A DNA stretch of 64,000 bases from Chiloscyllium plagiosum (taxonomy: Eukaryota), in assembly GCF_004010195.1 (NCBI RefSeq), contig NC_057719.1, positions 25,196,809-25,260,808 of the forward strand, given 5' to 3'. The notes under the pieces were generated by a model, which did not search any database, was not told the DNA's origin, and saw nothing but the letters and a program-made list of their open reading frames with translations. Of the stretch, positions 7,591-60,078 are shown one piece after another (within the stretch, counting starts at the first letter, position 1; each line of letters starts with the position of its first letter). The translations under genes were made by a program, and so were the position numbers.

Positions 7591-8069
7591 ATCCCATGCA
7601 AGGACTGCACAAAACACTACATAGGACAAACGGGAAGACAGCTAACGATCCGCATCCATGAACACCAACTAGCCACGAAACGACACGACCAGCTATCCTT
7701 AGTGGCCACACACGCAGATGACAAGCAACATGAATTCGATTGGGACAACACTACTATTATAGGACAGGCCAAACAGAGAACAGCCAGGGAATTCCTAGAG
7801 GCATGGCATTCATCCACAGATTCAATCAATAAGCACATCGACCTGGACCCAATATACCGACCACTGCAATGGACAGCTGGAACTGACAGCCGGAAGCGGC
7901 AGATTGAAATCATTATAAATGCCGGGAGAAACATCACAGAAGCGCTTCACAGGAGGCTCCCAAGCACTGAGGATGTCACCTAGACAGGGGACGAAACGTC
8001 TGCAACACAAATTCCCAGCTCGGCGAACAGAACCACAACAATGAGCTACAAATCTTCTCACAAACTTTG
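7591..8069 (+). mobile_element. Penelope-like element 3' fragment with GIY-YIG endonuclease and terminal hammerhead motif
   Basis: Open frame from 7591: IPCKDCTKHYIGQTGRQLTIRIHEH...REFLEAWHS...INKHIDL (GIY-YIG). Perfect 14-bp TSD aactacttgataca at 7577-7590 and 8070-8083. Confidence 0.92.
7964..8003 (+). ncRNA. Minimal type-I hammerhead ribozyme motif in the PLE terminal repeat
   Basis: GCA-CUGAGGA-U-GUC(A)CCU-AGAC-AGG(G)GAC-GAA-ACGU-C-UGC: core intact, helix I GCA/UGC, GUC triplet. Confidence 0.8.
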
Positions 8070-8257
8070 AACTACTTGATACATTTGGCAGGTTATCCCT
8101 GCATTACTTGTCTTGATGCTGAGGACTTTATGCCTCCTTTCCCCTACAGCACCAACACTGGATGCTATCACTTTATAAAATGTACTCCATATTCTGTGGA
8201 GTGTTTTAGTCCAGCAGTCCTCAGTGAGGACCCTCCAACTAATTATTGGGCCAATGC

Positions 8258-8593
8258 ATAGAATACCTTTTAGGGCATGTGGAAGGAGACCATTCAGCCC
8301 ATCAAGTCCACACTGACCCTCCAAAGAGCATTCCCCCTCACCCCCCTCCACCGACCCACCCTATTCCTGTAACCTCACACATCCCAGGGTTAACCCACCT
8401 AGCCTGCACACTATGGGCAATTTAGCCTGGGTAATCCACCTAACTTGCACATCTTTGGACTCTGGGAGGAAATCCATGCAGATCCTGGGAGAATGTGCAA
8501 ACTCCACACAGATAGCCGCCCGAGGCTGGAATCGGACCCGGGTCCCTGGTGCTGTGAGGCAGCAGTGCTAAGCGCTGAACCACTGCACTGCCC
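8258..8593 (-). mobile_element. HE1/V-SINE-related SINE, near full length
   Basis: tRNA-like head on - (agtggttcagcgcttagcactgctgcc...gggtccgattcc), V-domain and CR1-like tail. Confidence 0.8.
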
Positions 8594-9337
8594 CATGTAC
8601 TTTGAGGCATATGAGAGACCAAGACTTCCCTGTAATGAGTATCCCTTGCAGGCCTGTAAGAAAAAAAATTGGTATGGGTGAGATGAAAGAGGGGAGGCCA
8701 TTTAGAATGGCAATGACATGAAAGTACAGGTAAAATCTATTGACTCTCAACATTTTAGTTGGAAAAGCTGATCCTTGGAAAAGGAGTTCACTGTTGCAAG
8801 TTGGTAATTGCTTTATCCCAGGGCCTAGCTCCTGACACACATGCTCTGTTGCTCTTCTTAAAGGCATAATTAATCCTTTTTCCACACTTGTATCCAAATC
8901 CTATGGTACACATTTCATGAAATGTATCCTGATAAAAAGGTTGGCCTATTGATACATACAGATAAACAAAATTCATAATGGCTTGATCCTACACTGCATT
9001 TCTGAATAATTTACAATAGGGATACCACCTGTGGATTTGCTTTGATTTTAATTTAGCATTGAAGATGATTATTTATCTTTATTCATTTCAGTCCACTTAA
9101 TACGTTAAGAACATTGATGGAACATTTTGAAGGAGGCTGCTAGGAGTATCAATCCTGAAGCTGCAGTTGCTCAACGTGTGCCAGACCTCAACCTCACCTA
9201 CTGATTACTCCTATATTCTGGTCATAGATCTTGTCCAATGTTCATAGATCCAGTTAAAGTTGATATAAATGGTTTTTATTTTAGATCATGGCCATTGTAC
9301 AGCACAGCTTGTTGCAACTAGTCATAATTCTGAACAT

Positions 9338-9431
9338 GGCTGAAAATGTGTTGCTGGAACAGTGCAGCAGGTCAGGCAGCATCCAGGGAACAGGAGAATC
9401 GACGTTTCGGGCATAAGCCCTTCTTCAGGAC
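9338..9431 (-). mobile_element. Single-arm P1 element with intact hammerhead core
   Basis: - strand reads GUC-CUGAAGA-A-GGGC-UUAU-GCCC-GAA-ACGU-C-GAU. Perfect 13-bp TSD taattctgaacat at 9325-9337 and 9432-9444. Confidence 0.88.
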
Positions 9432-9599
9432 TAATTCTGAACATACATAGTATGTATTTGCCTTTTGGAACAAAATTTATACGTGTCAGCAAAAGGTCAA
9501 ACTCATCATTCCCAATTGCTCCGAAAGCTGAATAATCGTCTACTTATATTTCCCAGCCCCACAATCTCTCACAGGCAAGAATATACAACTGTTAATTCT

Positions 9600-11206: not shown

Positions 11207-11441
11207 AAAAGTGAGTGCTGCAGATGCTGGAAACCAGAGTCTAGGTTAGAGTGGTGCTGGAAAAGCACAGCAGGTCAGGCAGCATCCGCGGAGCAGGAAA
11301 ATAGACGTTTCGGGCAAAAGCCCTTCATCAGGAATGATGGACGTCCATTCCTGATGAAGGACTTTTGTCCAAAACGTCGATTTTCCTGCTCCTCGGATGC
11401 TGCCTGACCTGCTGTACTTTTCCAGCACCACTCTAATCGAG
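11207..11441. mobile_element. Palindromic P1 element with hammerhead cores on both strands
   Basis: Inverted arms meet at tcatcagg...cctgatga. TSD actccg(c/t)gtatac(c/g)atggc at 11188-11206 and 11442-11460. Confidence 0.88.
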
Positions 11442-11476
11442 ACTCCGTGTATACGATGGCTAATCCACTTAGCTTG

Positions 11477-11636
11477 GCGAAAGTGAGGACTGCAGATGCT
11501 AGAGATTAGAGTCAAGAGTGTGGTGCTGGAAAAGCACAGCATGTCGGGCAGCATCCGTGGAGCAGGAGAGTCAATGTTTCAGGCAAAAGTCCTTCACCAG
11601 GAATGATTCCTGATGAATACCTTTTGCCAGAGACAT
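11477..11636. mobile_element. P1 element with short inverted right arm
   Basis: TSD taatccac(t/c)tagcttg at 11461-11476 and 11637-11652. Confidence 0.85.
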
Positions 11637-12364
11637 TAATCCACCTAGCTTGCACATCCCTGGACACTGGGGTAATTTACCATGGCCAATCCATCTTTGG
11701 ACTGTGGGAGGAAACTGGAGCACCAAAAGGACACCTATGCAGATACAGGGAGAATGTGCAAATTCCACCCAGACAGTCACCCAAGGCTGGAATCAAACCC
11801 ATGTTTAAAATTGAGGAGCTGACATAGGTCAGCAAGCACAAGTGATAGCTAAATTAAACTTGAGTTGAAGTATGGGTTGTTGACTGTGAGCCTTAATGCA
11901 CCATGTTCTGATTGCCACCAAGACTGCTTGAGGAAGCTTCATCATCTGCACAGTTCAGCAACACAGTAACAGTCACATTTTCCAGTCATGGCATAGCTTT
12001 TGTTCTGGTCCATTTTTTTCTCTCCCTGGTTGGTCTGTTTGTTGAACTGTCTCTCTCAGCAGCGGGACCTCTTAGTACTAACTCGTGTGTCAGAAATGAG
12101 AAATTTATGATATAATATGTTTTATGAAAGTCACTAGTTTCAAAAATATATATTATTTTGTTTATAGTAGAGACCATTTGTCTCAGATTCTTAAAATATT
12201 CTGGGGAATTAAAAAAAATAATGTACACATTTTGGAGATCTTGGGAGTGTGATGTAACATTCCCCACTTGCCTGGATAGGTGCAGTTCCAGCAACATTCA
12301 AGAAGTTTGATGCCATCCAGAAACCCTCTTGATTCCCGTCTTGATTAGCTCTTTAGTTATCGAG

Positions 12365-12735: not shown

Positions 12736-13375
12736 TTCAGAATTTGCTTCCTCCATTGTGGATGCACTGCAGTGTATACCAATTACAAAATGCACTGTGC
12801 TTATCAACGCTGTTTGAGAGCACGTTGCAAACCCATGAACTCTAACACCTAGAAGGATAAAGACAGCAAATGCGTGGGAAGCCACTCAAAGCAACTCACC
12901 ATTTTGACTTGGGACTACATAGCTGTTAAAACTTTATTGTTAAGGGGTTGAACTCCTGAAAATCCCTGCTTAAACCATATGTCATGTTGTGGTTTGAAAA
13001 AAAAACGCTCATTATCATCAATTAGGGATGAGCAATAAATGTTTCCCTTACTAGTAATACCTAGTGTCAATTTAAGGTTTTTGACCCAGTAACAGTTAAG
13101 GGAAGATGATGTAGTTGCAAGTGAAAATGGTTCATGGCATAAAGGTGAGTTTCCACCCATCTGTTGTCCTTGTTCCTTTAGGTGATAGAGGTTGCAGGTT
13201 TGGAAGCTGCTGTCGAAAATACCTTGGTTGAGTGGAACTAAGTGCAGAGTATATTCATGTTCCTACTGTCTGTGGAAAAAAAACAGGACAATTTGCACTC
13301 ATACATGTAGCTTCCAGTACAGCTAAGTGTACCACACTCCAAGCTCGACTGACTGTCCTTAATTAATTTTTTTTT

Positions 13376-13540
13376 AAAACCCAAAGAACTGCGGATGCTG
13401 AAAATCTGAAACAGAAACAAAAATAGCTGGAGCAACTCAGCAGTACTGACAGCATCTTTGGAGAGAATGTTTTTGAGTTAATGTTTTGGTTTCAGTGACC
13501 CTTCAGAACTGATTTTCTCCCAGCTATTTCTGTTCTTGAA
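13376..13540. mobile_element. PLE-derived short element, family P2 (aagaactgcggatgctg...), with short inverted right arm
   Basis: Similar to 47018-47150 and 63650-63857; cagctatttc is the inverse of aaatagctg. Confidence 0.65.
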
Positions 13541-13619
13541 TCCATGATTGGTTTTCAGGGTAATTCTTTGGAAGCTTCAGATTACTTAGCAAATGTTGTC
13601 CAATTGCAGAATTGAATCT

Positions 13620-14160
13620 AATGTTAGATATTGTGTTATGAGTTTTCAAGTGCAGGTTGGTTGGATACTATCATGCATTGCTTGTTGCAAGCAGCCAAGA
13701 TACAATTCACCAGTCTTTGGGACATCCACCCTACATACTTGGCACAACACCAGCACATAAATTCATACACTACATTACAGGCTTGTGTGATAGGCAGCAC
13801 ATTTTTTTTTTGGGTTGACTGCAGCATCCTATTTAGTGGTAAACACCAATGAAACAACAATTCAATAAAAGCCTGGTAGCCACATGCTGGATCATTTCTT
13901 AGGGCAACACCATGACCAATCTTGCTGGTTTAAAATTTAAACAATGCTTGTCAGTTGTTATTTAATTGGTGCATTCTTGAAGGCAACACCTCTACCAATT
14001 GGAGTCCTGCCAATCAATCAGCAGTCTCCTCTCATGCAAAATGAATGTTGATTTTCCCCTTTAAATTGGTATTCTTGTGAATTGTCCTGATGAGTGCAAG
14101 ATAAAAAGCTTAACTGAAGTGTCCTCCTTTTAGACAATACTCCAGATTCTGTAGTACCAC
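13620..14160. mobile_element. Old PLE remnant: GIY-YIG on - strand, degenerate hammerhead-bearing end on + strand
   Basis: ORF 13636..13860(-) has NVVYEFMCWCCAKYVGWMSQRL (VVY..C.C..YVG GIY-YIG pattern). At 14084-14114: gtc-ctgatga-gtgcaagat-aaaaagcttaac. Confidence 0.65.
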
Positions 14161-14627
14161 ACAACTGTTTCAGACACTCATTAAAACCCACCTTTTAAAA
14201 CAAGGATTTGGTCATCTGCCTTAATAGCTTCTAATTTGGGTCAGTGTCATGTTTTGTTTTATTATCTTTAAAAGTGCTACATAAATGCAGGCTATCATTG
14301 TTGTTTTGGTGTAGCTATGTCTCTGCATGGATGTGAAACTGTAGGTATACACTGTAGGTATTACTAGTCAGATGCTAACTGACCTGGTGTATACTTCCAG
14401 TTTTCTCAATTCATCGTACGATTTGGCCAGCAGCAATTCAAACCCAATAAGAAAGCTGGAATCTTGAACACTTGAGTTATGGCATTTCCAAATTGTGTTT
14501 TTGTAGATTCTGCACAAATCTTTCAATTCCATTTTATTGTCCATACAGCAAAATTAGATTGGATACCTAACTCTTGGGACACTGATATGATAGAAACTTT
14601 TAAAAAGATACAGCAGACATGCCAATA

Positions 14628-16565: not shown

Positions 16566-17245
16566 GACAATAGACAATAGGTGCAGGAGTAGGCCATTCT
16601 GCCCTTCGAGCCTTTCAATATGATCATGGCTTATCATCCTTAATCAGTATCCTGTTCCTGTCTTATCTCCATAACCCTTGATTCCACAATCCTTGAGAGC
16701 TCTATCCAACTCTTTCTTAAATGAATCCAGAGACTGGGCCTCCACTGCCCTCTGGGGCAGAGCATTCCACACAGCCACCACTCTCTGGGTGAAGAAGTTT
16801 CTCCTCATCTCTGTCCTAAATGGTCTACCCCGTATTTTTAAGCTGTGTCCTCTGGTTCGGCACTCACCCTTCAGCGGAAACATGTTTCCTGCCTCCAGAG
16901 TGTCCAATCCTTTAATAATCTTATATGTCTCAATCAGATCCTCTCTGTCTTCTAAACTCAAGGGTATACAAGCCCAGTCGCTCCACTCTTTCAATGTAAG
17001 GTAGTCCCGCCATTCCAGGAATTGACCTCGTGAACCTACGCTGCACTCCCTGAATAGCCAGAATGTCTTTCCTCAAATTTGGAGACCAGAACTGCACACA
17101 GTACTCCAGGTGTGGTCTCACCAGGGCCCTGTACAACTGCAGAAGGACCTCTTTGCTTCTATACTCAATCCCTCTTGTTATGAAGGCCAGCATTCTATTA
17201 GCCTTCTTCACTACTTGCTGTACCTGCTTGCCTTCAATGACTGGT
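16566..17245 (-). mobile_element. Young CR1 LINE 3' part (element A)
   Basis: ORFs 16930..17211(-) KKANRMLAFITRGIEYRSKEVLLQLYRALVRPHLEYC and 16644..16994(-); tail gacaatagacaatag. Confidence 0.92.
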
Positions 17246-17247
17246 CA

Positions 17248-17568
17248 AAATAGACAAAGTCTTTTTCCTGGGCTCGGGGAGTCCAGAACTAGAGGGCATA
17301 GGTTTAGGGTGAGAGGGGAAAGATGTCAAAGAGACCTAAGGGGCAACTTTTTCACGCAGAGGGTGGTACGTGTATGGAATGAGCTGTCAGAGGATGTGGT
17401 GGAGGCTGGTACAATTGCAACATTTAAGAGGTATATGAATAGGAAGGGTTTGGAGGGATATGGGCCGGATGCTGGCAGGTGGGACTAGATTGGGTTGGGA
17501 TATCTGGTCGGCATGGACGGGTTGGACCAAAGGGTCTGTTTCCATGCTGTACATCTCTATGACTCTAT
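17248..17568 (+). mobile_element. CR1 LINE 3' end, different subfamily (element B)
   Basis: NRQSLFPGLGESRTRGHRFRVRGE...GNFFTQRVV; tail ctctatgactctat. Confidence 0.9.
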
Positions 17569-18229: not shown

Positions 18230-19342
18230 TTGCTACACGATGGCAGGTCAGCTTGGCCTCCACTATTTGGGAAGTTATGTCCCAGACAAATACATCTACA
18301 GGAAATGTCACTGCCTCTAGAAAGTTGAACCCCAGGTGTCAAACTCAATTAGTGTTGGAGTGACTGCTCTGTATCTGGGAAGCAGAAAATTATGGTGGCA
18401 ACATGTTTTAGGAGGTGATTAGCAGTGTACAGGCAAGAGAATGAAAGAGTGCCAAACTGGCAGGCAGCGCAGAAGTCTCCTGAACCACAGTCTCTCCTGG
18501 TTGCTGCTTAGTTTCCATTTTGGACACTGCATGAAGGAAACAGTATCTCGTGGCAGTGCAATAAAGCACCACAGATCATTGAGCTGCACAGGAGGACAGC
18601 AACAAGAGTAGAAGTGCAATACAGATAGGGGATATCATACTCGAGGGATCAGACAGATGCCTCGGCGGCAATAAACATGACGCCAGGGTCAAAGAATGTC
18701 ATGATGTAATTGCCATTACAGAAGTATGGCTAGAGAGTGACCAAGACTCTGAACTGAATATTCTAGGTTTAGGAAGGACCAGTGAAAAGGAAAGATGATG
18801 GTGTTGCACTGATACTGGTGAGGTCAGTGCATTAACAACAGAGGATTTGAGATTCGAAGAACAATGTGTGAAGTCTAGATTCGAGTGGTGCTGGAAAAGC
18901 ACAGCAGGTCAGGCAGCATCCAAGGAACAGGAAAATCGATGTTTTGGGCAAAAGCCCTTCATCAGGAATCCTTTTGCCCGAAACATCAATTTTCCTGCTC
19001 CTCAGATGCTGCCTGACCTGCTATGCTTTTCCAGTACCACTCTAATCTAGACTCTGGTTTCCAGCATCTGCAGTCCTCACTTTTGCCCAATGTGTGAAGT
19101 CTGTTTGGGTAAAATTAAAAACAGCAAGAAGCAGCAAATATTGGTAGTTGTTGTTATGGGCCTGTAAACAGCAATGGTACTAATCAAGAGATCAGAAGCA
19201 TTTAGAGGAGCAGTAATCATAGGTGATAACAATTTGTGCGTAGATTAGGTAAACCCAATGAGCACTGATCCTGTGAAGGATGAGTTTCATAAGTATATTA
19301 TGGATGATTTTCCAGACCAGTAAGTTAATGAACCAACCAGAG
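18230..19342 (+). mobile_element. Old CR1 ORF1/endonuclease remnant (element C, upstream part), interrupted by a P1 insertion
   Basis: Decayed motifs IGDIIL, DVIAITEVWL, SVWVKLKN, VIIGDN, FPDQxVNEPTRE. Confidence 0.7.
18877..19087. mobile_element. Palindromic P1 element
   Basis: Perfect 15-bp TSD caatgtgtgaagtct at 18862-18876 and 19088-19102; inverted arms. Confidence 0.9.
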
Positions 19343-19344
19343 TG

Positions 19345-22176: not shown

Positions 22177-23351
22177 GCTGCTTAAATTTGTGCATGTGGA
22201 TTTATCTCTACCAATGCATGCAAAATTTGCTATAAACTTAGTGAAGGGGGGAACAACGATCACTATCTCCTGTCCGTGCCCACCCCATTGACTGCCTTCC
22301 CTCCCCCTCTCCACTCTTTATCTCCACCCCCTCATTCAATCCAATTCTCTCTCACTTTCTCACACCCCCTACTGAATTCTGTTTCAATAGCGAGCTTCTT
22401 TTATATACGTGCACAGTTTCTTTGCATATGATGTCACTGAATTGCTTCAAGATTACATAGGTTTTCTGGAACTATCCGCATGTATAATTGCAAGGAATAT
22501 TAGTAATCAGCACTCACTGGCTAACTTGGATGTTGCTGTCCTGTGATAAGCTTGTCCTCCTTCTCTCAGGATTTGTTTTTGTCTCTTCCTGGTATCTGCT
22601 TCTAGAAAAATGTTAATAACTTTCTAAAAAGTCAAATTATCCTTTTGTCTGTAATATAACTCCCACGGATTAATCAATAATTCCAATAGCAGTTGGAATT
22701 CTGCTTTCAACATACCATAGTCACAGTTGTCCATGAATCTGTAGATGTTGCTTATGAAATTGCCTATGGATTTTCTTGGATGCAAGTTGTTGTGTTGAAC
22801 CTTGTGAACAAACACATTTTTGAATGAACAAGTTAAAATAATTATCAAAAGCTGTTAGAACTTCAAAAGTATTTGTCCTTTCTTTCTTGTTTTAACAAAT
22901 TTGTGATGTTATTTCTTATAGGTCCTTTGGAATTGCTGAGTTTGAGTTTTAGTTCTGCACGTTAAGAATTGTTTTTCTTGCCTGAGAATTATTTTAAATT
23001 TTAAGTGATAGGATCTTGTATTTCTAGCTTTTAACTTTGCATTAATCCCCTGGCTAGGCGACATCATCAGGCCGATAGGTTGATAGAACCTATCAACAAA
23101 GACGGCATACTTAAACTACTGGACTTGTGCCTCACAACACACTTCACATTCAACAACCAGATATACGAACAAATCAACGGAACACCCATGGGCTCACCGA
23201 TCTCGGGACTCATAGCAGAGGCAGTTATGCAAAGGTTAGAACAAACAGTCCTACCACAAATTCAACCCAAACTCTGGGTCAGATATGTCGATGACACGTT
23301 TGTAATCATTAAAAACACAGAAATAGAGAAAACACACCGGACCATCAACGC

Positions 23352-23468: not shown

Positions 23469-24040
23469 GCTCGTTGTTGTGGTTCTGTTCGTCGAGTTGG
23501 AGGTTTTTGTTGCAAACGTTTCGTCCCCTGACTAGGCGACATATCAGTGCTTGGGAGCCTCCTTCGAAGCGCTTCTTTGGTGTTTCCTCCGGTGTTTATA
23601 GTGGTCTTTCCCTGCCGCTTCCGGTTGTCAGTTTCAGCTGTCCTCTTTAGTGGTTGGTATATTGGGTCCAGGTCGATGTGTTTGTTGATGGAGTTTGTGG
23701 ATGAATGCCATGCCTCTAGGAATTCCCTGGCTGTTCTCTGTCTGGCTTGCCCTATGATAGTAGTGTTGTCCCAGTCGTATTCATGTTGCTTGTTGTCTGC
23801 GTGTGTGTGAATTTGACTGGGACAACACTACTATCATAGGGCAAGCCAGACAGAGAACAGCCAGGGAATTCCTAGAGGCATGGCATTCATCCACAAACTC
23901 CATCAACAAACACATCGACCTGGACCCAATATACCAACCACTACAGCGGACAGCTGAAACTGACAACCGGAAGCGGCAGGGACAGACCACTATAAACACC
24001 GGAGGAAACATCAAAGAAGCGCTTCGCAGGAGGCTCCCAA

Positions 24041-24080
24041 GCACTGATGATGTCGCCTAGCCAGGGGACGAAACGTTTGC
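24041..24080 (+). ncRNA. Minimal hammerhead ribozyme motif in the PLE terminal repeat
   Basis: GCA-CUGAUGA-U-GUC(G)CCU-AGCC-AGG(G)GAC-GAA-ACGU-U-UGC. Confidence 0.75.
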
Positions 24081-26679
24081 AACAAAAACTTCCAGCTCGG
24101 CGAACAGAACCACAACAACGAGCACCCGAGCTACAAATCTTTTCACAAACTTTGCATTAATGCAATGTTGTTTTGCTCTCTCACTTAGGGAAAACCTTTA
24201 CCTCATAATAGCAAGGCTATTTTATGTTTTTGACTTTGCAAAATAGTACTGTTATGTTTTCCAAAATGCTTTATGTTAATTAATGATGCTGTATTTCTCA
24301 ACTGCTTACTGTGTCTTTCCATCATTTTGTGGGCAGAATTCCAGCCTTCTGCAACCAAAGTGAAGGTTCTCTAAATTTTTTCAGAGGCATAACATCTACA
24401 CTTCATCCACAGCATTTTTGCAAACAAAGTCGTATACCTTAGTGCAATAATTGCAATTAAAATTATTGATCTTCCATTCTTTACAACAATCTTAAAAATC
24501 TTCTCATTATTTTCTTCTGTTGGCCTCTCTCTTCATTATATTTTAAAATTATTTTTATTTTAAATCTTTGTCACATTAAATCTACTTCACAGTGTTCCTC
24601 CGGAACTGAGACCTCAGTATAACTTAAATCAGTGGCCTTTAACTTTGCTATTCTGGCTGTGTGGCAACACATTGTGAATGGGAGGTAATCCTTTCTTAAC
24701 TGCAACATTTTGCAGACTGATTCTTCATACTATTAATTTAAAATTTTCCTTTGCTTTACGAGAATGTTCAACTTTACTCAAGGAGTTCCAGAATAATAGA
24801 TGTCTCCCAGCAGAACCTTGAAACCCTACAGTGTCTTGTTCTACAAAGACACTGTAATTGCCACGTGACTAATTTTCCTTTAAGTTCCTATTAGCACTAA
24901 CTGCTTCTCTTGTGTTTTTTCTTAACCAGGTCTGAAGTGAAAGTTTTAGCTTGGAGTGCTGTTTCTATCTTGTTATTCCTTACTCAAATTTGCTAATTTG
25001 CTTGTTTGTTCAAACAGTTACAAATGGAGACTGGATACTTTTTAAAAGCTGTAGCATTGAAAGCAATAAACTCACGAGTCTTAAAATTTGTTTCTCCCTG
25101 GTCCATTGGACATTTTCCCACAGTTGTTACCTTGTTGTTTGAACAATGATATTCATGTTGTATATGCTGAAAAATTAGCTAATTAAAGTAAAACAGAGAA
25201 TAGAAGCTGAGTTAGACCATTCAGTCCACAAAGCGTTCTCTGTCATTCAAGGTACTCTTAGCTGATCCCTCATCTCAAAGCCTTAGTCCTGCTCTATCTA
25301 TATATCCATTGACATCTTTAGCCTCGAGGAATCTATCTATTTCTTCTAGTAGGTGTTATGCTGTCATCAATCCACCTTTCAAGACTGAGACTAAGGACTT
25401 GTTTTGTTCACATCTGTTGAAGATATGCCACTAGTGAGTCTTAATAAAAATGGATACTTGTCTTAGCAAGACATGGATTATTGGTTGATAGCCATAGATA
25501 TATATGATGTAAACTTAGCTATCTTGTCTAACCAAATCAATCAGGAGACCGTGCTGCTGATTATGTGACATAATCAGATTGGGTAGAACTTAATGCAGTC
25601 TCCAACATTAACCCTTTCAAAATCTTTATCCTATATAATCCCACAACTGCAGCGACTTCGCATTATCTTTTAGAAGAATTCCACAGGTTTGATAATTGAC
25701 CTGATTTAGAATTTTGGAATTCCAGGGATCCTTCTGACCTTTATTCAGAATGTGTGCGCGAGTGGGTGGTGACTGGGTGAGGACAGGTTTATTTGGAGCT
25801 ATGATGCTCAATGTGATTAAAGAAAGCATCAAAATTTCCTATTGAGGCTTCTGTTTGAACAATAGGCACTTGGGCAAAGCACCCTTTGACCTATTGCTCA
25901 CAGAACATATTTCACCAAGGGCTCTCTGAAAGGAAAAAATAAGTGACACAATTACTGAAAAGAGAAGGTTAATAAGATTTTACATGCAGGATCTAAGAAT
26001 AATTTGAAGGAAACATACATCTTAATATTGTCCGTTGCATCTCTTGTGTCTAAGCTGTCAACAGAAGTTTGGAATAATGAAAACATTGGCATCTATGCAT
26101 AATGTTTCTGCATTCTCTTCCCTTCAGGTTGCATACAACAATCGGCTTTAAACTGCAGAACTGGGTTGGCCTTCCTTCCTGGGCTCTAACCAAACATTTG
26201 CATTTACAGCGATGGTCTAGGAATATATTTAGTTGTCTTTCATGTCCACACTTCAAACAGAACCAGTATTCAGAGGATGACTGTGTGAGCAGTCCTTGAG
26301 AATAGTTTTTTTAAAGAAATGCAAGAACAATTGAACTGCATTATCTCTTTGAAATAAACAGCTTTTATTTGCTTGGCTTGTATTTTTCTGTGTTTTTCAC
26401 ACTCTGGAGGTTTGTGCAGTATTCTATGAGAGATGGTATCAAGTAAAACATTTGCAATTCTCTACTCCTTTTGAAGCACGCCTTTACACTTACTGAGCCA
26501 TGACTAAAGCTCTGTCATCTTTGTGACTTAGGTCAAATTTTGTTTGACATTCCCATGAAGGTCCTTGAGATATTGCATGATTCAAGATGTCATATAAATG
26601 CAAGTTGTTATTTCAGTATCTAGTATATGGTCTCCACTGACTGATGTAACTGGATTTTTAGGAAGAAACTGTGCAGTCC

Positions 26680-28158: not shown

Positions 28159-28391
28159 TCAAGATTAGTGGTGCTGGAAAAGCACAACAGGTCAGACAGC
28201 AACCGAGGAGCAGGAAAATCGACATTTTGGACAAAAGTCCTTCATCAGGAATCATCAGGCCTCGTTCCTGATGAAGAGCTTTTGCCAGAAACGTCGATTT
28301 TTCTGCTCCACGAATGCTGCCTGACCTGCTGTGCTTTTCCAGCACCACTAATCTTGACTCTGATCTCCAGCATCTGCAGTCCTCACTTTCG
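28159..28391. mobile_element. Palindromic P1 element
   Basis: TSD cctcttctt(c/t)gcaagc at 28143-28158 and 28392-28407; inverted arms joined at the hammerhead cores. Confidence 0.9.
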
Positions 28392-28654: not shown

Positions 28655-29181
28655 GGAGAAAGTGAGGACTGCAAATGCTAGAGATCAGAGTCAAAGAGTG
28701 TAATGCTGGAAAAGCATAGCTAGTCAGGCATAGTCATTGAGATGTACAGCATGGAAACAGACCCTTTGTTGCAACTTGTTCATGCCAACCAGATATCCTA
28801 ACCTAATCTAGTCCCGTTTGCTAGCACTTCACCCATATTCTTCTAAACCCTTCCTATTCCTATACTCATTCAGATGCCTTTTAAATGGTGCAAATGTACC
28901 AGCCTCCACCACTTCTTCCTCTGGCAGCTCATTCCATACATGCAACACCCTCTGTGTGAAAACGTTGCCCTTTAGGCCCCCTTTTTTTCCTTTCCCCTCT
29001 CACCCTAAACCTATGCCCTCTAGTTCTGGACTCCCCTACTCCAGGGAAAACACTTTGTATATTTGTTCAATCCATGCTCCTCATGATTTTATAAACCTCT
29101 ATATGATTCCTGACGAAAGGCTTATGCTCGAAACGTTGATTCTCCTGCTCCTCAGATGCTGCCTGACCGGATGTGCTTTTC
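28655..29181. mobile_element. P1 element whose arms enclose a CR1 3' fragment (about 28729-29103, - strand)
   Basis: TSD cagt(g/a)aattttgagag at 28639-28654 and 29182-29197 brackets the whole composite. Confidence 0.82.
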
Positions 29182-30534
29182 CAGTAAATTTTGAGAGTAT
29201 AACTACAGTGCTGTTGAATGCTCTTTTGTTGACAGTTATGTGATTTTTTGTGGTTGATAGATTTGGACTGTTGAGTTAGTATGCAGCCCAATTGCTTCTT
29301 CAAATTATCTTAAATTAGCAGTGCTGTATAATAAATCTTTCTTAATTTGGAAATTCGTATCCTTTAATTTGATTTAATTTTGTATTACCATAACCTTAAT
29401 CAATATCCTTTAATGTGTAGAATGGTGTGTACATACAACTGAAATGAGATTTGTTTTTCTTATCCCAGCTTACACTGTAATAAAAAGGAAATAATTGGTG
29501 TAATAAATAAATAATATTGCAGCCTTACAACATACTCTCAATGAATCTCTGGCAGTTGCTCCTATGAAATTTTTGATATGGTTTAGTTGTCTGTCACTGG
29601 AGAGACACATTGTCCTTCATGGGTCAGCTTGTTGTGGGTGCTTGACATGTTGACCAGTCATGGTGGAGGTTCCTGTATTGCCATTGTTTGTTGTAGTGTG
29701 GTCAAACCGCCATTAATTCAAGGTAATCCAGTATAGCTATTGACACTGGCATTTACATGGAAGATTGCCCAGGCATGTCTTAACTACAAAAACCATGATA
29801 AATCTAACCCAGACAATAACCACTGTCAGCCATATGTAAATCTCTATAAAGTAAGAGTTGTCAATAGTGCCATGCATAAACACCCACCTTTTGTACCATG
29901 CTCACTGCTCAGCTCAGTTTCTGCCTGAGCCATTTGGCTCCAGCTGTCAATATGCCTGTGATCCCAGATGTTGATGCATGAGTTGAATGCCTCAAGAAAC
30001 AGGAGAGAAAAATTCCCTTGATACCAAGGAAACACTTGACCTGGAATGACTTTGACAAGTCACATTCAAATTGAAAATAACAAAGGGTTATACCTGACAT
30101 CAATGGAGGCCAATTATCAATGCCGTAGGGCATCATTGGAAGAGTTCCTTAGAGCAGTACACTTAGCCTCACTATCTTCATCTGCTTCACCAATGGTCTT
30201 TGCATTATGAAGAGCACTTTGCTGATAATTCCACTATGCTCAGCACTATTTACGACATCAATAATGAAGCAACTTCTGTCTGAAATGTGCTGATTATCAT
30301 AGTAAGTGTAAGCACTGGGTAATGACTGATGAGAGGAAGAAAAAGTCTAGCTGAGTCTCAATATGTTTTGGGCTGACCATTGTTGGGTCTTTCACCATCA
30401 ATATGAGAGCTTGGGATAGGATCTGCATCTGGAATGCATTGCCGATCAAGGCCAAAGGCTCATCTTGGATGAGTGATGTTATTTGGGTCTTCCAACTGTT
30501 TTGATTTAATGTTTGCTTGTGTGTCTTTTCATAG

Positions 30535-39869: not shown

Positions 39870-41119
39870 AGGCCATTTCTGTATCTGTATCATCTAATTG
39901 CAACAGGGTCAACTTTGAGATAGTTATTGCATTTTGGCTTGGCGTGTGGGCAGTGAGAGCACATGTTTATCTGGAATCTTTCACAGCCCCTAAATGCCCC
40001 AAAGCACTTAGTAATGGAGTACTTTTGTTCTGGAAAGGTCTCTGGGTGCGTTTCACCAATTTGTTACAGTTCCAGTCAAGACCCTCCCAGTCATTAATCT
40101 TCCAGGTGAGGATGGAAGAACTGGCTGGTCTTCCTTATTCACCCACTCCCTTGGTTGGTCACAACTATTTTAGTTTCGAAAGGATCCCACTCTTACAAAT
40201 ACTTTATTTCAGACCAAATGACTGTAAAAGGAGCTGATTTAACCAGATTATCTGAATTAACAAAAAGGCAAGTTTATTAACTGCAAGCAGAAGTAACATC
40301 TCATGCATTCAGATTGCAAACAAAAAGACATTATTGAAACTCTCACCTGCAGTGCAGGGGTGTTTAATGTCTCTCCAGATTGTGATTATCATTGCATACT
40401 AGTCCATATTCTAGTACATAAGGCACAACATCAGACCAGGGTTTTTAACATTTTTGTTTGTATATCTCTGGAAGGGTAAAACACAAATATGTTACACATG
40501 GCATCCTGTGGATAGGGAGGTGAGTAGTAAGCTGTTCATTTATCTCTTCATTTTTAGTCTTTCTATTTTGAAGTTTTCCTGACTCCATACAAGATTCACA
40601 TTCCATGGTTCTACACAGGACTCTGCCAGTTATTGAATTTATATCCACAGTCATCTTTTGTAAATGCCGCAGTCCCTTTTTAAACAAAAGGATATGTTGG
40701 AATTACAAGTTTGATATGCACATTAGTGCTTTGGGGTTCTGATCATTGCAGTGACAAAGACTACTGGAAAAAATGTTACCTTAGCCAATATTGTTTTCAG
40801 TGGTGTGCTCGTGGTTTCTCTTCCCATTCATCAAACCATTCCAGCATGAAACCCTTCAATCCAAATATGTTACACCCAAGTTGTTTAGATCAGTGCTCTG
40901 TCAGATCATAACTCCTTTATTTCGGAAGGGGTTTTGCTTGTGCTTAGGTGTATTTTACAGTCAAAGCGAATACGGTAAGAACATATTATTTACCCGATAA
41001 CCTTAACTTGTATTTGTATTGTGCCTTTGATGGGACAATGGCTTAGAATCACAAAGGAGTAAGACATAAAGTCTGGACTTTCTTCATAGACTATGTTAAA
41101 GAGGCTATCATATTAGTGT

Positions 41120-41335
41120 TGAAAATGTGTTGCTGGAAAAGCGCAGCAGGTCAGGTAGCATCCAGGGAACAGGAGAATCGACGTTTCGGGCATAAGCCCT
41201 TCTTCAGGAAGTCTGAAGAAGGGCTTATTCCTGAAACGTCGATTCTCCTGTTCCTGGATGCTGCCTGACCTGCTGCGCTTTTCCAGCAACACATTTTCAG
41301 CTCTGATCTCCAGCATCTGCAGACCTCATTTTCTC
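41120..41335. mobile_element. Palindromic P1 element, well preserved; - strand hammerhead core intact (41180-41207)
   Basis: Perfect 15-bp TSD ctatcatattagtgt at 41105-41119 and 41336-41350; arms meet at tcttcaggaagtctgaaga. Confidence 0.92.
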
Positions 41336-42014
41336 CTATCATATTAGTGTAACTTGTTGTGATCATGGAATAATCTACATCTTGTTTAAGAGTCTCATCT
41401 TATCAGGCTACCAAATAGTTTTGCTCTAGCACACTAGACCAAGTGAAGCCCTGTAAATCCCTATTCTGAAAGATGATGGTAGCAGCAAATCTAGCTTACA
41501 CTGGGCAGTAGTACATTGAAAATGATGAACAAGGGTATTGATTGCTCAGTCAATCACTCCCCATTTCTCTCCTTTTCTTGGATGTTCTGTCTTTCTCTGT
41601 GCTTCCATTTGATGACATTACCTGCATTTGGTTTGTGACCTTGCGTGAGTTCTAGCTGAGGCAGACTGGCCAGAGAAGGTGTGCCCTGAGGAGCTGTTAA
41701 TTTTGCAAAGTGACTGTTTGGAGAGGTTGCACTCTGCTGCATATGAATACCACTGGAGTATAAGCCACATATTGGAATTGGGACTGATTGGTCTTAAGGC
41801 ACAAAATTAAAAAGCTTTGATTATAGAGTCCCAATTATTGAATTACTGCAAATGAATTACTTGTTGAGTCGGTTGATTGCAAATGACTCATTGCCATAAA
41901 TGGCTACCTACTACTTAGCAGACAAATCTTTGAGGGAACAATGTTTTGTTAGCAAACCCTTTCAAAATATATTGCTAGCAATTTTGCTACTTTGCAACTG
42001 AATTGTAATAGATC

Positions 42015-45655: not shown

Positions 45656-45724
45656 TGCTTTGCTGGGTGCAGTTCCAACAATATTCCAGGTTGGCACTAT
45701 CCAGATCAAAGAATCTATGGACAT

Positions 45725-46796: not shown

Positions 46797-46921
46797 GGAG
46801 AAAGGGAGAACTGCAGATGCTGTCGATCAGTCAAAAAACGTGGCCCTGGAAAAGCACAGCAGGTCAGGCAGCATCCAAGGAGCAGGAGAGTCAAAGTTTC
46901 GGGCATACGTCCTTTATCAGG
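46797..46921 (-). mobile_element. Degenerate single-arm P1 element
   Basis: ctgcagatgctg...ctggaaaagcacagcaggtcaggcagcatcc...tttcgggcata...atcagg. Confidence 0.75.
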
Positions 46922-47017
46922 CATGTTGCTTGGGATGTATTGAGGTTGTGACGGACGCTGAGAAGGTACAGGTCTCTTTAGTTGAAATTCTTTACCTATC
47001 CCCTGTCCATTTCTAAA

Positions 47018-47150
47018 TAAAAACCGAAAGAACTGCGGATGCTAGAAATCCGAAACAGAAATTGGCGGAAAGGCTCAGCAGGTCTGGTAGCATCTGTTGA
47101 GAGAAATCAGAGTTAACATTTCAGGTTCAGTGAACCTTCCTCAGAACTGG
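47018..47150 (-). mobile_element. Family P2 PLE end with hammerhead motif (47112-47147)
   Basis: - strand: GUU-CUGAGGA-AGGUUC-ACU-GAACCU-GAA-AUGU-U-AAC; helix I GUU/AAC. Confidence 0.75.
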
Positions 47151-51079: not shown

Positions 51080-51820
51080 TATAGTTAGTAAGTTTGCAGA
51101 TGGCACCAAAATTGGAGGTGTAGTGGACAGTGAAGAAGGTTACCTCAGATTACAATGCATTTTGGAAAGGCAAATCAGGACAGGACTTATACACTTAATG
51201 GTCAGGTCCTGTGGAGTGTTGCTGAACAAAGAGACCTTGGAATGCAGGTTTTTAGTTCCTTGAAAGTGGAGTCGCAGGTAGATAGGATAGTGAAGAAGGC
51301 ATTTACTGTGGTTTTCTTTATTGTTCAGACATGTTGGAAGGACATGTTATGGCTGTACAGGACATTTGTTAGGCCAGTTTTTGGAATATTGTGTGCTATT
51401 CAGGTCTCCCAGAAGGATGTTGCGAAACTTGAAAGGGTTCACAAAAGATTTACATGGATGTTGCCAGGCTTGAAGATGAATAGGCTGGGGCAGTTTTCTC
51501 TGGAGCATCGGATGCTGAGGAATGACCTAATAGAGATTTATAAAATCATAAGGGGCATGGATAGGGTTAGTAGACAAGGTCTTTTCCCCAGGGTGGGGAA
51601 GTTCAGAACTAGAGGACATAGGTTTAGGGTGAAGGGGAAAATTTTAAAAGGGGCCTAAGGGGTAACTTTTTCATGCAGAGGGTGGTGCCATTATGGAATG
51701 AGGCTGGTACAATTACAACATTTAAAAGACATCTGGATAGGTTCATGAATAGAGGGATATGGGCCAAGTGCTGCCAAATGGGACTAGATTAATTCCGTGG
51801 TGTACACCTTTGTGACTCTA
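51080..51820 (+). mobile_element. CR1 LINE 3' fragment with internal deletions
   Basis: ORF 51155..51658 MHFGKANQDRTYTLNG...EQRDLG...KLERVHKRFT. Confidence 0.88.
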
Positions 51821-51851
51821 TATGGAATGTTACTTAAGTAATGTGAGAAGA

Positions 51852-52040
51852 TTTGGAGATGCCGGTGTTGGACTGGAGTGTACAAAGTTAAAGATCACAC
51901 AACAGCAAGTTATGGTCCAACAGGTTTATTTAGAGACACTAACTTTCGGAGTGCTGCTCCTCGTCAGGTGATTGTCACAACCACCTGATGCAGGAGCAGC
52001 GATCCGAAAGCTAGTGCTTCCAAATAAACCTGTTGGACTG
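51852..52040. mobile_element. Palindromic PLE-derived element, family P3, hammerhead motifs on both strands
   Basis: gtccaacaggtttatt ... aataaacctgttggac inverted arms. - strand 51937-51970: CAC-CUGACGA-GGAG-CAGCA-CUCC-GAA-AGUU-A-GUG. + strand 51982-52016: CAC-CUGAUGC-A-GGAGC-AGC-GAUCC-GAA-AGCU-A-GUG. Confidence 0.82.
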
Positions 52041-52791
52041 TAAATAGGAAGGGTTAGGAAGGATTGGGCTGGGTGCTGGCAGGTGAGACTAGATTGGGTT
52101 GGGATATCTGGTCGGCATGGACGAGTTGGACTAAAGAATCTGTACATCTGTATGACTCTACTAAAGATCATAACACCATAATGTGACAGGTTTTTGTTGG
52201 CAGGATATGGAAACAAGATGCATAAACAGAGTTAAGGTACGGATCAACTGTGTTCAAGTTTGAATGTTAGTAGAAGTCCAAAGGGTTGAATGACTGAGAG
52301 TATTATTGCTTCTTCCCCAGTACTAGTTCTGATTAAAATCTTTCAGCAGCACCCTTTTGCTGCTGATCCATATTCACTGCTGTCTTTCTAGCAAACATAA
52401 TGTTGAAAAGCACAGTTATGACATCCAGTGGCAGGAATTTGGTGCAGCACCTTGTGTATTTGCTAGTTGACCTGGTCATTTTCCTTCTGCTTGACTTGAA
52501 CAGGAAGTGCAACAGGACTGTTGCACTCACATGAAATAAATTGCGTTCCTGACCTTTTCCTGAAATGCTATTAAAACTTGTCAAATGACACAGTGTGCGA
52601 TATTTAAACTTCAAACTTGATTGAATTTCTCAAAAATGTAATTCTGGACCAGTTAAAGTGTTTGGGGATGATGTCTGATAAATAAAGTTTACGGTTTAGC
52701 TTGAGCACCAGCCATATGACAATGTGCCTACTGTAACAACAGAAAATATTGGTAAATACTCAGCCGGTTGATAATTTGCTACTGATTGAAA

Positions 52792-53004: not shown

Positions 53005-53654
53005 TTGCATACTGACGAAATACTGCATGTAAATGGCCTTTTGCTCAGCCTAAAATATTTACTTCTGTTCCTTTTTCCACAGAAGCAGCCTGCCCTGCTG
53101 AGTACTTTTGCTATTTTTGAGTTTGAATCAAATTTCTACATCCACAGCATTTTGCTTTTGCATTGTTGCATGATAAGTAGAGGCTGCCACCAGTTCAAAG
53201 GAATGTAATGATGTCAGGGACAAGTTTGAGCCCTCGGCTAGTCTGCATTGTGCCTGAATGCTACAATTGTCAGCAGATGCCACCCTCAACCCCCCACTGC
53301 CCCCGACGCGCACACCGCTGCCCCCACGAGTTACAGAGAGAAAATTGTTTCATTATCTTCTCTGTCCACTCCTAACCTGACTGTCCTGCAGTTGGAATGG
53401 ATACTGAGTCCAAGGGACAGTACCAATTGCTAACATTTGTTGTCAAAACCCATGAGCAAATGTGAAACATGGAGATTCCCTCATCCCTCTGAACGCTGAT
53501 GCCTGTAGAAAAGCTGGCAAAGAGAAATAACGAAACACAAAACAGCTATTCCGACATTTCAAATAAATACATGCTCTAAATCAATTTAATCATGTTGGCG
53601 AATTAATAACCAATCAACAAAATATTACACCATGACCTTTAACAACGTATGTTG

Positions 53655-53740
53655 TTAAAAATCACACAACACCAGATTATAGTCCAACAGGTTTATTTGG
53701 AAGCACTAGCCTTCAGAGCACTGCTCCTTCATCAGGTAGC
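53655..53740 (-). mobile_element. Single-arm P3 element
   Basis: Homologous to 51888-51970; - strand core CUGAUGA-A-GGAGC-AGU-GCUCU-GAAG-GCUA-GUG (GAAA mutated). Confidence 0.8.
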
Positions 53741-54166
53741 TGTGAGACATGTTTGTTGTGATTGTGGACTTCACAGGTATGGTGTTTATACTAAAGTTCT
53801 GCCAGGAGGCAAATCATTGACATTGTTACCATGAGAACCCATGAGAAAGAAACACAAAATGATACTTATTGAAAGTCAAATGACAGTTTTTACTCCTATT
53901 GAAGGGAAAGAGTGAGTTGTCATTTGGGAGGGAGAGAGGTGCACAGGAAAAAAAGGTAATTTAATTTTAAGGTCTTCAGTTTAATTACAAAAGTGGATTG
54001 TTCAGCTTCTTTAGTATGTAAAGCTAATGATTAGAACAAAGAGGGATGTTTTGTTGTTACATAATTTGTAAAGACCAGGGAACTACTAGATGATGTGCAT
54101 CCAGGGTGCCATATTTACAGCTGCACTGTAGTCCAGTATCCAAACAAAAATAGGTCAGTTGACTAA

Positions 54167-54326: not shown

Positions 54327-54331
54327 GTGAC

Positions 54332-57193: not shown

Positions 57194-57319
57194 CTGGACC
57201 TGGAGAAACCAATCGAGGAGCAGGGACCACTTGATGTTATAATCCACAAACTGACTGATGTCATTCTGGAGGCGGACCAAAACGATGCCCAGTCCCAGCA
57301 ACTGGTGCAGAGGTTTCAG
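57194..57319 (+). CDS. ITPK1: ITPK1 internal coding exon (126 bp, phase 0/0): LDLEKPIEEQGPLDVIIHKLTDVILEADQNDAQSQQLVQRFQ
   Basis: Pyrimidine tract plus acceptor (ccttgtcttgtag) before, gtgagg donor after. Translation matches the vertebrate ITPK1 segment I recall as LNLSRPIEEQGPLDVIIHKLTDVILEADQNDSQSLELVHRFQ. Not in the ORF track. Confidence 0.96.
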
Positions 57320-59604
57320 GTGAGGACACTATGCGGGCACGTGCGCGCGCACACACAATGGGAGATTCCCTGTTAACATTGAAGGGGGGGGGTGGGTCAG
57401 CAGTTTGTGCATCACCTCTGCCCCAGCCTGGATTGTCATCCCTCCAGGAATAGCCTGGAAGTCTCCAGGAGTTCAGCCTAATCTCTGGATGTGGCTGTGA
57501 ACAATCCTGGTGGCATCATTGGAGCAATGAAGAAAATGATTTTCTTTTTTTTTCCTTTGAATATTTTGGAGTTTAACACTTACCAAAGAAAGATGGAGAT
57601 AAGAAAGGCTGTTTAGCTATCAAGATTAGTGGGGGTGGGTGTGGGGCTAGTGAATGGGTTGTTGGTTGTTGCAGGGGGGGTGTCTATATGTGTGTGGTAA
57701 CTGGAGACATAAATAAATCACAAAGAAAATAGTCAACCAGAGTTGATAACCCTAACCCCATTCCAAAATAGAAGCAACCTGGTGGTCTCTTGTCCCTTTA
57801 TGTTTAATAACATTCACACCAGGACTATTACACCTGAGTAGAAAGGCAAATAAAGGCACATGCATACGGTCACTGCCTTATTCTGATTTTAATGGGCAGC
57901 ACATGAAAAATGCACTTTTCATCACTGTTTGCTTATAGCCGGTGTTGTCTTTGAAGTTGACACCTACAGTCCTCTAAGCTGAGCAGCCATGCACAAGTTG
58001 GCATCTTTATATTTTCATAAACGCATAACACCCAAAGAAATTTAAAGGCCTAAACAGTTAAAGAAATTGTCTGGTTCCTCTCAAAAAGAGGAGAAGCATT
58101 CATAATTGAGAGGAAGGGAAACTGGCTTTGCAGTTATGCTTTTAATTGAGGGATAACAGTAGCTAGTGACATCTATTGAAACATGTCTCTCTTGGTTAGG
58201 GCTTTCCACTACAGAGTGGCACGGCCTGTAGCTGGACGGTCTGTTTGCTATTGGCATTCCTTTGGTTTAAAATGAAAATATTTTAAATTGAGCAGCGAGC
58301 ATTTAAAAAGGCCCATGTCAAAAGAGAATTGCAGTTTTAAAAGCAAAGCACAGCTGGATTCATTTACTGTTATAGCACATCAATCTAATAAAATATCATT
58401 TTAATGAAACTTGATGCTTCTATGAATAATTCAGTACTATGCTAAGTGGTGGAAGGACAAATAACCAATAATTAATTAGATTTGTCCATAATTTACTTTT
58501 CCAAGTTATCTTTATGACTCATTGGCGTGAGGAAATGTGCTTGGCTACCTCCCATGTTCTGCTGCTTCTGAAGACATTGATTCCCCATTGGACGTGATTC
58601 TGGAGTATCAGTCCTCCCTCTTGCTTGTCTAGCTGGCTGATATTCATGTGTTGAGACTAGATTATGTGTTTTGAGGCCTCTCAGCTGTAAGAAAGGCCAC
58701 AGTCAAGCCTCCATTGCCAGATGTTCAGACACCTGACAGCCACCTGACAGCACCCAGGTAGTTCCCAATGCCAAAGCACAGAGAACCATTTTAGCCTTAG
58801 TGCCCAACTAGCTGAGGTCAGCTATTTATGATCTACTTAGCCCAACAGTGAATTAGCTTTATTGTCACATGTACTCGATAAGTACACTTAAAAGTTTACA
58901 AGTCGCCACTTACAGTGCTATCTTAGATACAAGGTATCTACAGATTCTTCAGCACAATTTCCTGGGAAAGCAAATTAGAAAAATAAAGAAATATGAAGTC
59001 CAACTTTATAGATCATCCGAATAAATTACAAAATAGAGAATTAAGAAGTTCAGAACAACCGTCCTTCAAACCCAGTTCATGCTAGCACCAAGCCTCCAGT
59101 CCGTACCTGGCCTTGACCCAAGACCGCGCTGGGTTTCAACTTGAGGCTGTTGAGGCTGGCATACTGCTCTGGAATCACCTTTGAAGTCCAGATTTTTATA
59201 GTCTTCATTTCTTTATGATCCACTTTAGAGATGAATTGGTGACCCAACAGTGTATTATCGCTATTTAGTGTAAATCTAGTGCCAGTTTAACAAAAATGTT
59301 TTCTCTTTCGCATAAAGAAAATCATTAATTATGATCTTTCTGTTTATAGATTGTGTAAAGGTTTGACACATATGTCTGTCCAATAACTATTTCAACTCTT
59401 ACTCCCCCTCTTCATCTTCTCACCACTGCCTCTACCACCACTAACATTCATCTTCTTTCAATAACAGCAACTATGTGATCTAGTTCCTCCCAATATCTTC
59501 AGATTTTAATTTTATCTTCCATAAGTTTGCTGAGCTGTCTTGTTTATTCAGTCACGCAGTAAATCTCTGACTCCATGTTGTTTATTTGAGCGTTTCACTT
59601 TAAC

Positions 59605-60078
59605 GTGGAGAAAGTGAGAACTGCAGATGCTGGCAATCAGAGTCGAGAGTGGGTTGCTGGAAAAGTACGGCAGGTCAGGCAGCATCTAAGGAGCTGGCTC
59701 TTGCCTAAAATCAACATTTTAGGCAAGAGCCCTTCATCAGGAATGAGGCTTGTGAGCCAAGGGACCCCCCTCCCCCTTGACTCTCTAGCCTCATCCCTGA
59801 TGAAGGGCTTTTGCCCGAAACGTTAGTTCTCCTGCTCCTCGGATGCTGCCTGAGTGGGTTGCTGGAAAAGTACGGCAGGTCAGGCAGCATCTAAGGAGCT
59901 GGCTCTTGCCTAAAATCAACATTTTAGGCAAGAGCCCTTCATCCGGAATGAAGCTTGTGAGCCAAGGGACCCCCCTCCCCCTTGACTCTCTAGCCTCATC
60001 CCTGATGAAGGGCTTTTACCCGAAACGTTAGTTCTCCTGCTCCTCGGATGCTGCCTGACCTGTGCTTTTCCAGTACAC
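59605..60078. mobile_element. P1 element with internal 205-bp tandem duplication
   Basis: Units 59647-59851 and 59852-60056 differ at 3 positions; 9-bp TSD cactttaac at 59596-59604 and 60079-60087. Confidence 0.9.

Follow-up and report, generated by a model that had tools for sequence, protein, structure and literature searches.

Minimal hammerhead motifs at the truncated ends of Penelope-like elements in Chiloscyllium plagiosum, and the RNA that their short copies may record

Minimal hammerhead ribozymes (min-HHRs) have been published from the pseudo-long terminal repeats (pLTRs) of metazoan Penelope-like elements (PLEs) (Cervera and De la Pena 2014, PMC4209133). As described in that paper, they have a type-I topology, an extra base between positions 9 and 10.1, a G10.1-C11.1 pair and a palindromic helix III (15.2-16.2), and they occur as many solo copies from truncated PLEs, as opposite-strand pairs and in fish Poseidon and Neptune elements. 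A closely similar picture emerges from a 64,000-nucleotide stretch of the Chiloscyllium plagiosum contig NC_057719.1 (the window), in which an initial annotation had picked out hammerhead-like repeats. Sharks have no mention in the main text of PMC4209133, whose supplements may list shark motifs. What PLE hammerheads do is described as still open (PMC8557442, PMC4209133), and hundreds of thousands of copies offer a natural record of the RNA that was integrated.

Judged by sequence, at least four Penelope-like families with a minimal hammerhead in their end repeat have left these repeats behind as truncated 3′ ends, and the cores in the window are minimal type-I hammerhead motifs in PLE pLTRs. 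Most of the window copies are decayed or locked in hairpins, and the same holds for most copies across the genome. The best explanation, to which we assign a probability of roughly two in three, is that these are truncated PLE ends and that in three Neptune-like families the short copies are likely complementary DNA (cDNA) run-offs from likely capped, uncleaved RNA that starts at or just before helix I. The ribozyme class, its pLTR location, the inverted structure and the tail are already published, and the families described here are further members at unusually high number.

Hammerhead cores and their parent elements

A descriptor consisting of CUGANGA, an optional extra base after A9, helix II, GAA, a self-complementary helix III and H matched ten times on the two strands of the window, against a mean of 0.145 (maximum 2) in 200 dinucleotide shuffles. 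Homology mapping against natural copies, which counts intact and decayed cores together, placed 27 core-bearing arms there (17 P1, 3 P2, 3 P3, 1 P5 and 3 Poseidon-like). The cores named in the initial annotation were all located where it had put them, and the high density it described is real, its figure of about 15 cores per 64 kb being too low. It had also proposed a descriptor search, which we ran on the window and on stretches sampled elsewhere, and cores again stood far above the shuffle level. An Rfam covariance-model search of the window gave 23 matches with E values of 10 or less, none of them to a hammerhead family, a negative that carries little weight for variants this short. Its microRNA matches were discarded, being below threshold and driven by hairpins; the palindromic insertions at 23738-23853, 41170-41250, 11559-11652 and 28206-28310 resemble microRNA precursors below the Rfam thresholds and are a likely source of false annotation. 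The hammerhead-bearing features of the window are as follows.

7579..8041, + strand: 3′ remnant of a Poseidon-like PLE (endonuclease C-terminus and pLTR), of the same family as the reverse transcriptase-endonuclease (RT-EN) frame in locus L065
7964..8003, + strand: intact minimal hammerhead found by the descriptor, with a 3-bp helix I, an extra U, ACGU in helix III and a GUC site
9339..9431, - strand: short copy of P1 (Neptune-like), 13-bp target duplication at its flanks, core at 9401-9428
11208..11442, both strands: P1 head-to-head palindrome with a long and a short arm, GGAC/GUCC helix II swap in the right arm
11476..11606, - strand: decayed P1 arm with core
13372..13513, - strand: decayed P2 copy, absent from the initial annotation
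13963..14169, + strand: old, decayed, pLTR-like P5 copy with upstream CCAAT boxes and a TATA-like site; core from 14087, helix II 2 bp, AAGCUU
18874..19083, both strands: P1 palindrome, left arm starting at -4 with a G in front
23035..23349, + strand: Poseidon-like RT fragment (Pfam RVT_1)
23475..24117, both strands: Poseidon-like 3′ ends in inverted orientation, the core intact on the + arm (24041-24080) and decayed on the - arm
28163..28390, both strands: P1 palindrome
29106..29183, + strand: short P1 copy whose first base lies at -4, preceded by a G
41112..41339, both strands: young P1 palindrome with a core on each arm, folding as a single long hairpin (-177.8 kcal/mol)
46798..46925, - strand: decayed P1 arm
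47013..47149, - strand: short P2 copy, core at 47115-47144, CpG-decayed
51850..52043, both strands: P3 (Neptune-like) palindrome, arms starting at -8 and -9
53654..53744, - strand: short P3 copy
59607..60084, both strands: two tandem copies of a P1 palindrome (205-bp period, 98%), with a broken helix I
63652..63857, both strands: decayed P2 palindrome

The conserved core, CUGANGA ... GAAA ... UH, is present in every family, in P5 at the family level only (G12 in 47%, CpG-decayed). Catalytic C3, G5, G8, A9, G12, A13 and A14 and a non-G at 17 are identical across all five families, and helix III is self-complementary throughout: ACGU in Poseidon-like, P1 and P2 copies, AGCU in P3 and AAGCUU in P5, palindromic in each as the initial annotation had noted. 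Pairing was judged from commonest letters and swap counts. Helix I changes in sequence while its pairing stays, also as noted there; its commonest letters pair at 17 of 19 positions over the five families, the exceptions being one U-U in P1, where helix I is only two adjacent pairs plus this U-U, and one CpG-decayed pair in P5. G10.1-C11.1 in helix II is kept at the family level save for CpG decay, with G-U commonest in old P2 and P5 copies. Four families carry the extra base between 9 and 10.1; P5 does not, and its motif (window 14084-14117; L141-L170) has a helix II of 2 bp and a helix I of 5 bp. A title by Lunse, Weinberg and Breaker on small PLE hammerhead variants and dimer cleavage reportedly covers very short stems, which would include a P5-like form.

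Within families, the common variants sit at N7, loop II, H17 and in the flanks, and the core alters mainly by CpG decay. In helix II, an A-U pair stands in place of G-C in 7 of 149 P1 and 8 of 37 P2 copies; the GGAC/GUCC variant already noticed in P1 is a real compensatory change. Together, the pattern of variation and the helix II swaps point to selection on master elements rather than on inserted copies. Palindromic copies, if transcribed, would according to the folding model be buried in a long hairpin.

Several readings of individual copies changed. In the initial annotation the P2 and P3 helices were taken from decayed copies, whose cores are real and whose helices differ from the family forms, which have an extra A after A9, G-C at 10.1-11.1 and a helix III of ACGU (P2) or AGCU (P3); the window P2 copy reads AUGU, CpG-decayed, and the P3 copy at 51940 is one A short. 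Among the named P1 copies, helix I is broken at 11304 and 59797 and has only 2 pairs at 41180, and in the copy at 9397-9432 the outer 5′ base of helix I is supplied by the 13-bp target duplication. A young P1 subfamily (L182:5526-5565, L206, L196, L215, L228) has U-A in place of the helix I U-U and an altered loop II, and is a better candidate for tests of cleavage.

The cores belong to several parallel PLE lineages, as had been proposed, with GIY-YIG or RT remnants upstream of P1, P2, P3 and Poseidon-like cores at other loci. A long RT-EN frame at L065 represents the Poseidon-like family; the window cores at 7964 and 24041 sit after the endonuclease C-terminus, and both copies, earlier called autonomous, are 5′-truncated remnants. 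About 11 of 30 close P1 copies extend, by eye, into a common pyrimidine-rich region and then into GIY-YIG (Pfam) and RT, which rules out P1 as a stand-alone mini-element. Upstream of P2 lie RT or EN remnants and upstream of P3 an EN (no RT). From these sequences, P1-P3 are 5′-truncated 3′ ends of GIY-YIG elements and are not free-standing. A CX4CXXC linker precedes the endonuclease at P1 loci L176, L205 and L322, at P3 loci L072 and L119 and, by eye, in P2 at L090; because a CX2-5CXXC linker before the EN is a mark of Neptune (PMC8557442), we call P1 and P3 Neptune-like. Poseidon-like is a label given because L065 has no linker finger and on general features of that group. Pfam did not recognise two window Poseidon EN fragments or the P1 RT fragment, and looking past the P1 ends for the body of the element turned up shared neighbouring sequences.

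These families are not fully independent, since P1 and P2 are related: the two are 86-89% identical over 28 nt downstream of the core, and P1, P2 and P3 all lie behind similar GIY-YIG ends, so the description of the families as unrelated does not hold. The decayed fifth form with AAGCUU is confirmed as a motif, with no linked open reading frame (ORF) within 1.4 kb in 30 P5 loci; it is old and runs 45-350 nt upstream through CCAAT and TATA boxes. Further hammerhead-bearing subfamilies appeared at L194, L231, L207, L212, L216, L222, L223 and L243, comprising an older Poseidon-like form with GUU/AAC helix II, a P1-like form with another helix I and a P3-like form with a longer loop. At P3 loci L124, L136 and L138, about 0.7-0.9 kb separate the endonuclease from the hammerhead, including a CA-rich microsatellite tract.

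Beyond the window, stretches were selected by round coordinates. A strict descriptor found 54 motifs in 95 of them (920,909 bases) against 0-1 in 10 shuffles, and 253 arms covered the core in 115 stretches (1,117,152 bases): 133 P1, 50 P3, 36 Poseidon-like, 31 P2 and 3 P5. Extrapolated from large contigs only to the 3.56-Gb assembly, this is roughly 0.2 million intact and 0.8 million core-bearing copies. Exact copies of a 30-letter sequence of one P1 subfamily numbered 21,120 and those of a 19-letter P3 stretch 12,686, which agrees in scale with the extrapolated totals. The hammerhead-bearing end regions cover about 5% of the sampled bases.

Where the copies begin and end

Breakpoint rates were computed from about 1.1 Mb of random stretches, the flanks of targeted loci and the window, leaving out arms close to the middle of loci that had been retrieved for their own family; P5 (5 arms) was too sparse. 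Among arms reaching that far, the 5′ end fell within +2 to -9 of the first core base in 106 of 199 (P1), 38 of 52 (P2) and 39 of 76 (P3), several-fold above the rate elsewhere; in P1 it is 4.4% per nt versus 0.4-1.6% in six other bins. The putative start is an A at -4 (P1 and P2, where it is the first base of helix I) or at -8 (P3), in what we take to be an initiator-like context, and a TTATC or TATA-like box lies 29-32 nt ahead of it in the P1, P2 and P3 parents. The cleavage-site bin was not raised in P1 (9/267, 0.48% per nt) and slightly raised in P2 (8/92) and P3 (7/95). A footprint of cleavage was sought there and not established: six P1 arms are listed at +28/+29 within a flat bin rate, and the P3 cases are alignment artefacts.

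These ends bear on whether the short copies could instead be non-autonomous retrozyme- or SINE (short interspersed nuclear element)-like families that spread through ribozyme-cleaved, possibly circular RNA. Such families would suit the very high copy number, the 205-bp tandem pair in the window and the few P1 arms at +28/+29, and retrozymes are reported in one chondrichthyan (bioRxiv 10.64898/2026.07.22.740005). However, the copies retain the whole core upstream of the cut site, the cut site has no pile-up, the same sequences continue into EN and RT at other loci, the upstream TATA-like box is absent from the short copies, and the tandem pair is a duplicated palindrome with a broken helix I. 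We give this explanation very little credence.

The base in front of the start is often a G. Among the first 100 listed of 5,724 P1 copies with a non-parent base at -5, it was G in 65, A in 20 and T in 15; in an unselected sample it was G at 10 of 15 starts at -4, compared with 33 of 102 other breakpoints (Fisher p = 0.019). By eye, neither flank supplies the G at 7 of the 20 independent P1 junctions inspected. The sequences lying farther upstream of the P1 junctions bear no relation to one another, so this is not an exon, and a splice acceptor at the P1 edge was dismissed, there being no AG and no shared upstream exon; the P2 edge does have an AG, at which splicing may occur. In P3 the counts were G 1,257, T 587, A 286 and the parental C 10,556, where some of the T probably reflects C-to-T mutation. 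Full-length L1 and SVA insertions carry an untemplated G that has been attributed to copying of the cap (PMC3287187), and in the open-access literature we found no report of a PLE start at a hammerhead or of a cap-derived G in a PLE.

The pile-up might alternatively mark a barrier, with the reverse transcriptase stalling or switching template in the pyrimidine tract that lies upstream of the motif; the G would then arise by microhomology choice or terminal addition. In 13 of the 20 inspected junctions the G is common to a flank and could derive either from the inverted arm or from the duplicated target; microhomology with the inverted arm accounts for many of the -3 starts; and both P1 helix I strands contain ATTC (L215), which would permit template jumps. 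Nevertheless, the P1 excess of G is specific to -4, it recurs in P3, which has no ATTC-type direct repeat, and in three families a TATA-like box precedes the start by about 30 nt. A folded ribozyme should moreover halt RT at its 3′ side, where there is no excess. On balance we regard a barrier as unlikely.

One public read set shows depth rising about four-fold at the edge. Among the loose-end sites listed, -4 and -3 are the two largest upstream (96 and 43 of 1,574 reads), and the four listed contig joints into the edge all end in G. The reads lie on both strands with no site where many molecules begin, and so reflect genomic copies in read-through RNA rather than the element's own transcript.

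At the other end, the copies stop in two clusters about 35 nt apart (near +88 and +125 in P1), as expected from two internal RT start sites (PMC11167929). Many arms have a head-to-head partner (171 of 344 in P1, 54 of 119 in P3, 28 of 112 in P2 and 9 of 60 in the Poseidon-like family), and nearly all P1-P3 pairs combine a long and a short arm (157 of 171 paired P1 arms, 50 of 54 in P3). Subfamily letters mostly agree between the arms: 51 of 486 sites differ in P1, where the background is 300 of 5,437 (5.5%) and random pairing would give 48%, and 25 of 129 in P3. The palindromes at L326, L121 and L137 join arms of differing subfamilies, with 3 diagnostic differences and at most one other. These mixed palindromes look like the product of two different templates, and fold-back copying cannot yield them.

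At 23011-23035 the Poseidon-like insertion opens with a short antisense piece of its own hammerhead just inside an apparent target duplication of about 13 bp. A tRNA-SINE-like repeat at 62863-63266 has 90-nt inverted arms (91% complementary) around a core and may be another head-to-head insertion type; similar sequence lies at 6301-6711 and 36204-36590.

A possible route from capped RNA to short copies

The run-off explanation can be set out as a putative sequence of events. RNA polymerase II would initiate about 30 nt past the TATA-like box in the pLTR, giving a capped RNA that opens with the hammerhead. The element protein would nick the target and begin to copy the RNA from an internal site, +88 or +125, as the Anolis element does in vitro, and RT would reach the RNA 5′ end after 90-130 nt, leaving short copies in which the cap is often copied as G; an RT start in the downstream pLTR of a long RNA would leave longer truncated copies. 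If both nicked strands primed, two cDNAs could be joined head to head without an antisense template. The ribozyme, predicted to be dimer- or protein-aided, would act on some other fraction of the RNA and cleave it about 32 nt from the cap; any such cleavage would take off the cap and probably, in the Poseidon-like family, the start codon as well. Selection would preserve the motif in master elements, while inserted copies would decay fast through core CpG sites.

Since the copies retain the core and, in many cases, the G, we take the integrated template to be mostly uncut. Should the extra G be a copied cap, the in vivo template would have been both capped and uncleaved. This would agree with the in vitro result of 2024 and speak against cleaved circles as the source of these copies; it would also put the ribozyme at the extreme 5′ end of the RNA, so that cutting takes the cap away.

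Several observations weigh against this account. Young Poseidon-like copies show no 5′ clustering (0/27), and no ORF is linked to P5 in the loci surveyed. The 5′ starts are scattered over 12 nt with noisy local alignment ends, and some -8 breaks were artefacts of unrepresented subfamilies, which added references partly corrected, with noise remaining. The 13 P1 junctions with an ambiguous G count here too; the P3 antisense arm is G-rich (control G 15/40) and may inflate the P3 excess, and for P2 the cases are too few (G in 4 of 6, of which two represent a single locus that was duplicated). The read set offers no common start of molecules, and when two copies were co-folded the hammerhead dimer was not the lowest-energy form.

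A more speculative extension, rather improbable in our judgement, gives the hammerhead, as the opening part of a capped Neptune-like RNA, two jobs: its palindromic helix III would pair two RNAs so that both nicked strands prime, producing the head-to-head insertions, and its firing would remove caps as a concentration-dependent off switch. It draws slender but genuine support from the few palindromes that join differing subfamilies (L326, L121, L137), most pairs being concordant.

The motif might also be kept as a protein-binding RNA fold or through overlap with a promoter, and rarely or never cleave in the cell. The two adjacent pairs plus U-U of P1 helix I would fit this, as would the low published activity (PMC4209133), the Anolis catalytic mutants without effect on in vitro insertion and the lack of reads ending at the cut site in that study (PMC11167929), and the 8 of 9 Xenopus dimers left uncleaved (bioRxiv 10.64898/2026.07.22.740005). 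We consider it quite improbable, since the catalytic positions and the non-G at 17 stay constant in five families despite helix change; it is also compatible with the run-off model, from which it differs only in the ribozyme step.

Elsewhere in the window are fragments that we take to be ORF2-like remains of CR1/L2-type long interspersed nuclear elements (RT tail, APE endonuclease) at 16644-22057, 42013-42480, 45616-45990 and 51134-51658, and presumably an esterase-like ORF1 at 19728-20354.

Comparison with described systems

In open-access literature we found no report of a shark PLE hammerhead, although the supplements of PMC4209133 and of the 2026 preprint may list some. PMC4209133 gives about 4,000 motifs in coelacanth and about 9,000 in Xenopus, compared with roughly 2x10^5 extrapolated here with a different descriptor, and, as far as its accessible text goes, reports no start-site or cap footprint. 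In D. virilis Penelope, the start lies 46 bp ahead of an intron whose end falls at helix I (PMC2377424, PMC4209133), whereas the P1 edge has no AG.

The non-LTR retrozymes described by Li, Clavereau and Pollet (2026, bioRxiv 10.64898/2026.07.22.740005) resemble these copies in being pLTR-derived, in carrying a type-I hammerhead and in occurring in a chondrichthyan. They are head-to-tail tandem units with a ribozyme in each, whereas the copies here lie scattered, either alone or as head-to-head pairs. The window has no head-to-tail array in which every unit carries a complete ribozyme; its sole tandem pair is the palindromic one with a broken helix I.

As in the Neptune clade and other PLE insertions (Craig et al. 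2021, PMC8557442; Arkhipova et al. 2013, PMC3846280), there is a linker zinc finger, an inverted 5′-truncated partner, an optional tail, and TATA and initiator-like motifs in the pLTR. For head-to-head repeats, PMC3846280 invokes self-priming on an antisense template, whereas the data here also fit dual-nick priming on sense RNA.

A further parallel is the Poseidon element PAc of Anolis (Frangieh et al. 2024, PMC11167929), in which two internal RT starts lead to a 30-40-nt tail, both strands are cut and extended, and uncleaved RNA is the main template in vitro. Its ORF start overlaps stem II, as appears to be so for the window Poseidon-like copies. That work concerns one Poseidon element in vitro and, in its accessible text, offers no map of RNA 5′ ends and leaves short run-off copies unexplained.

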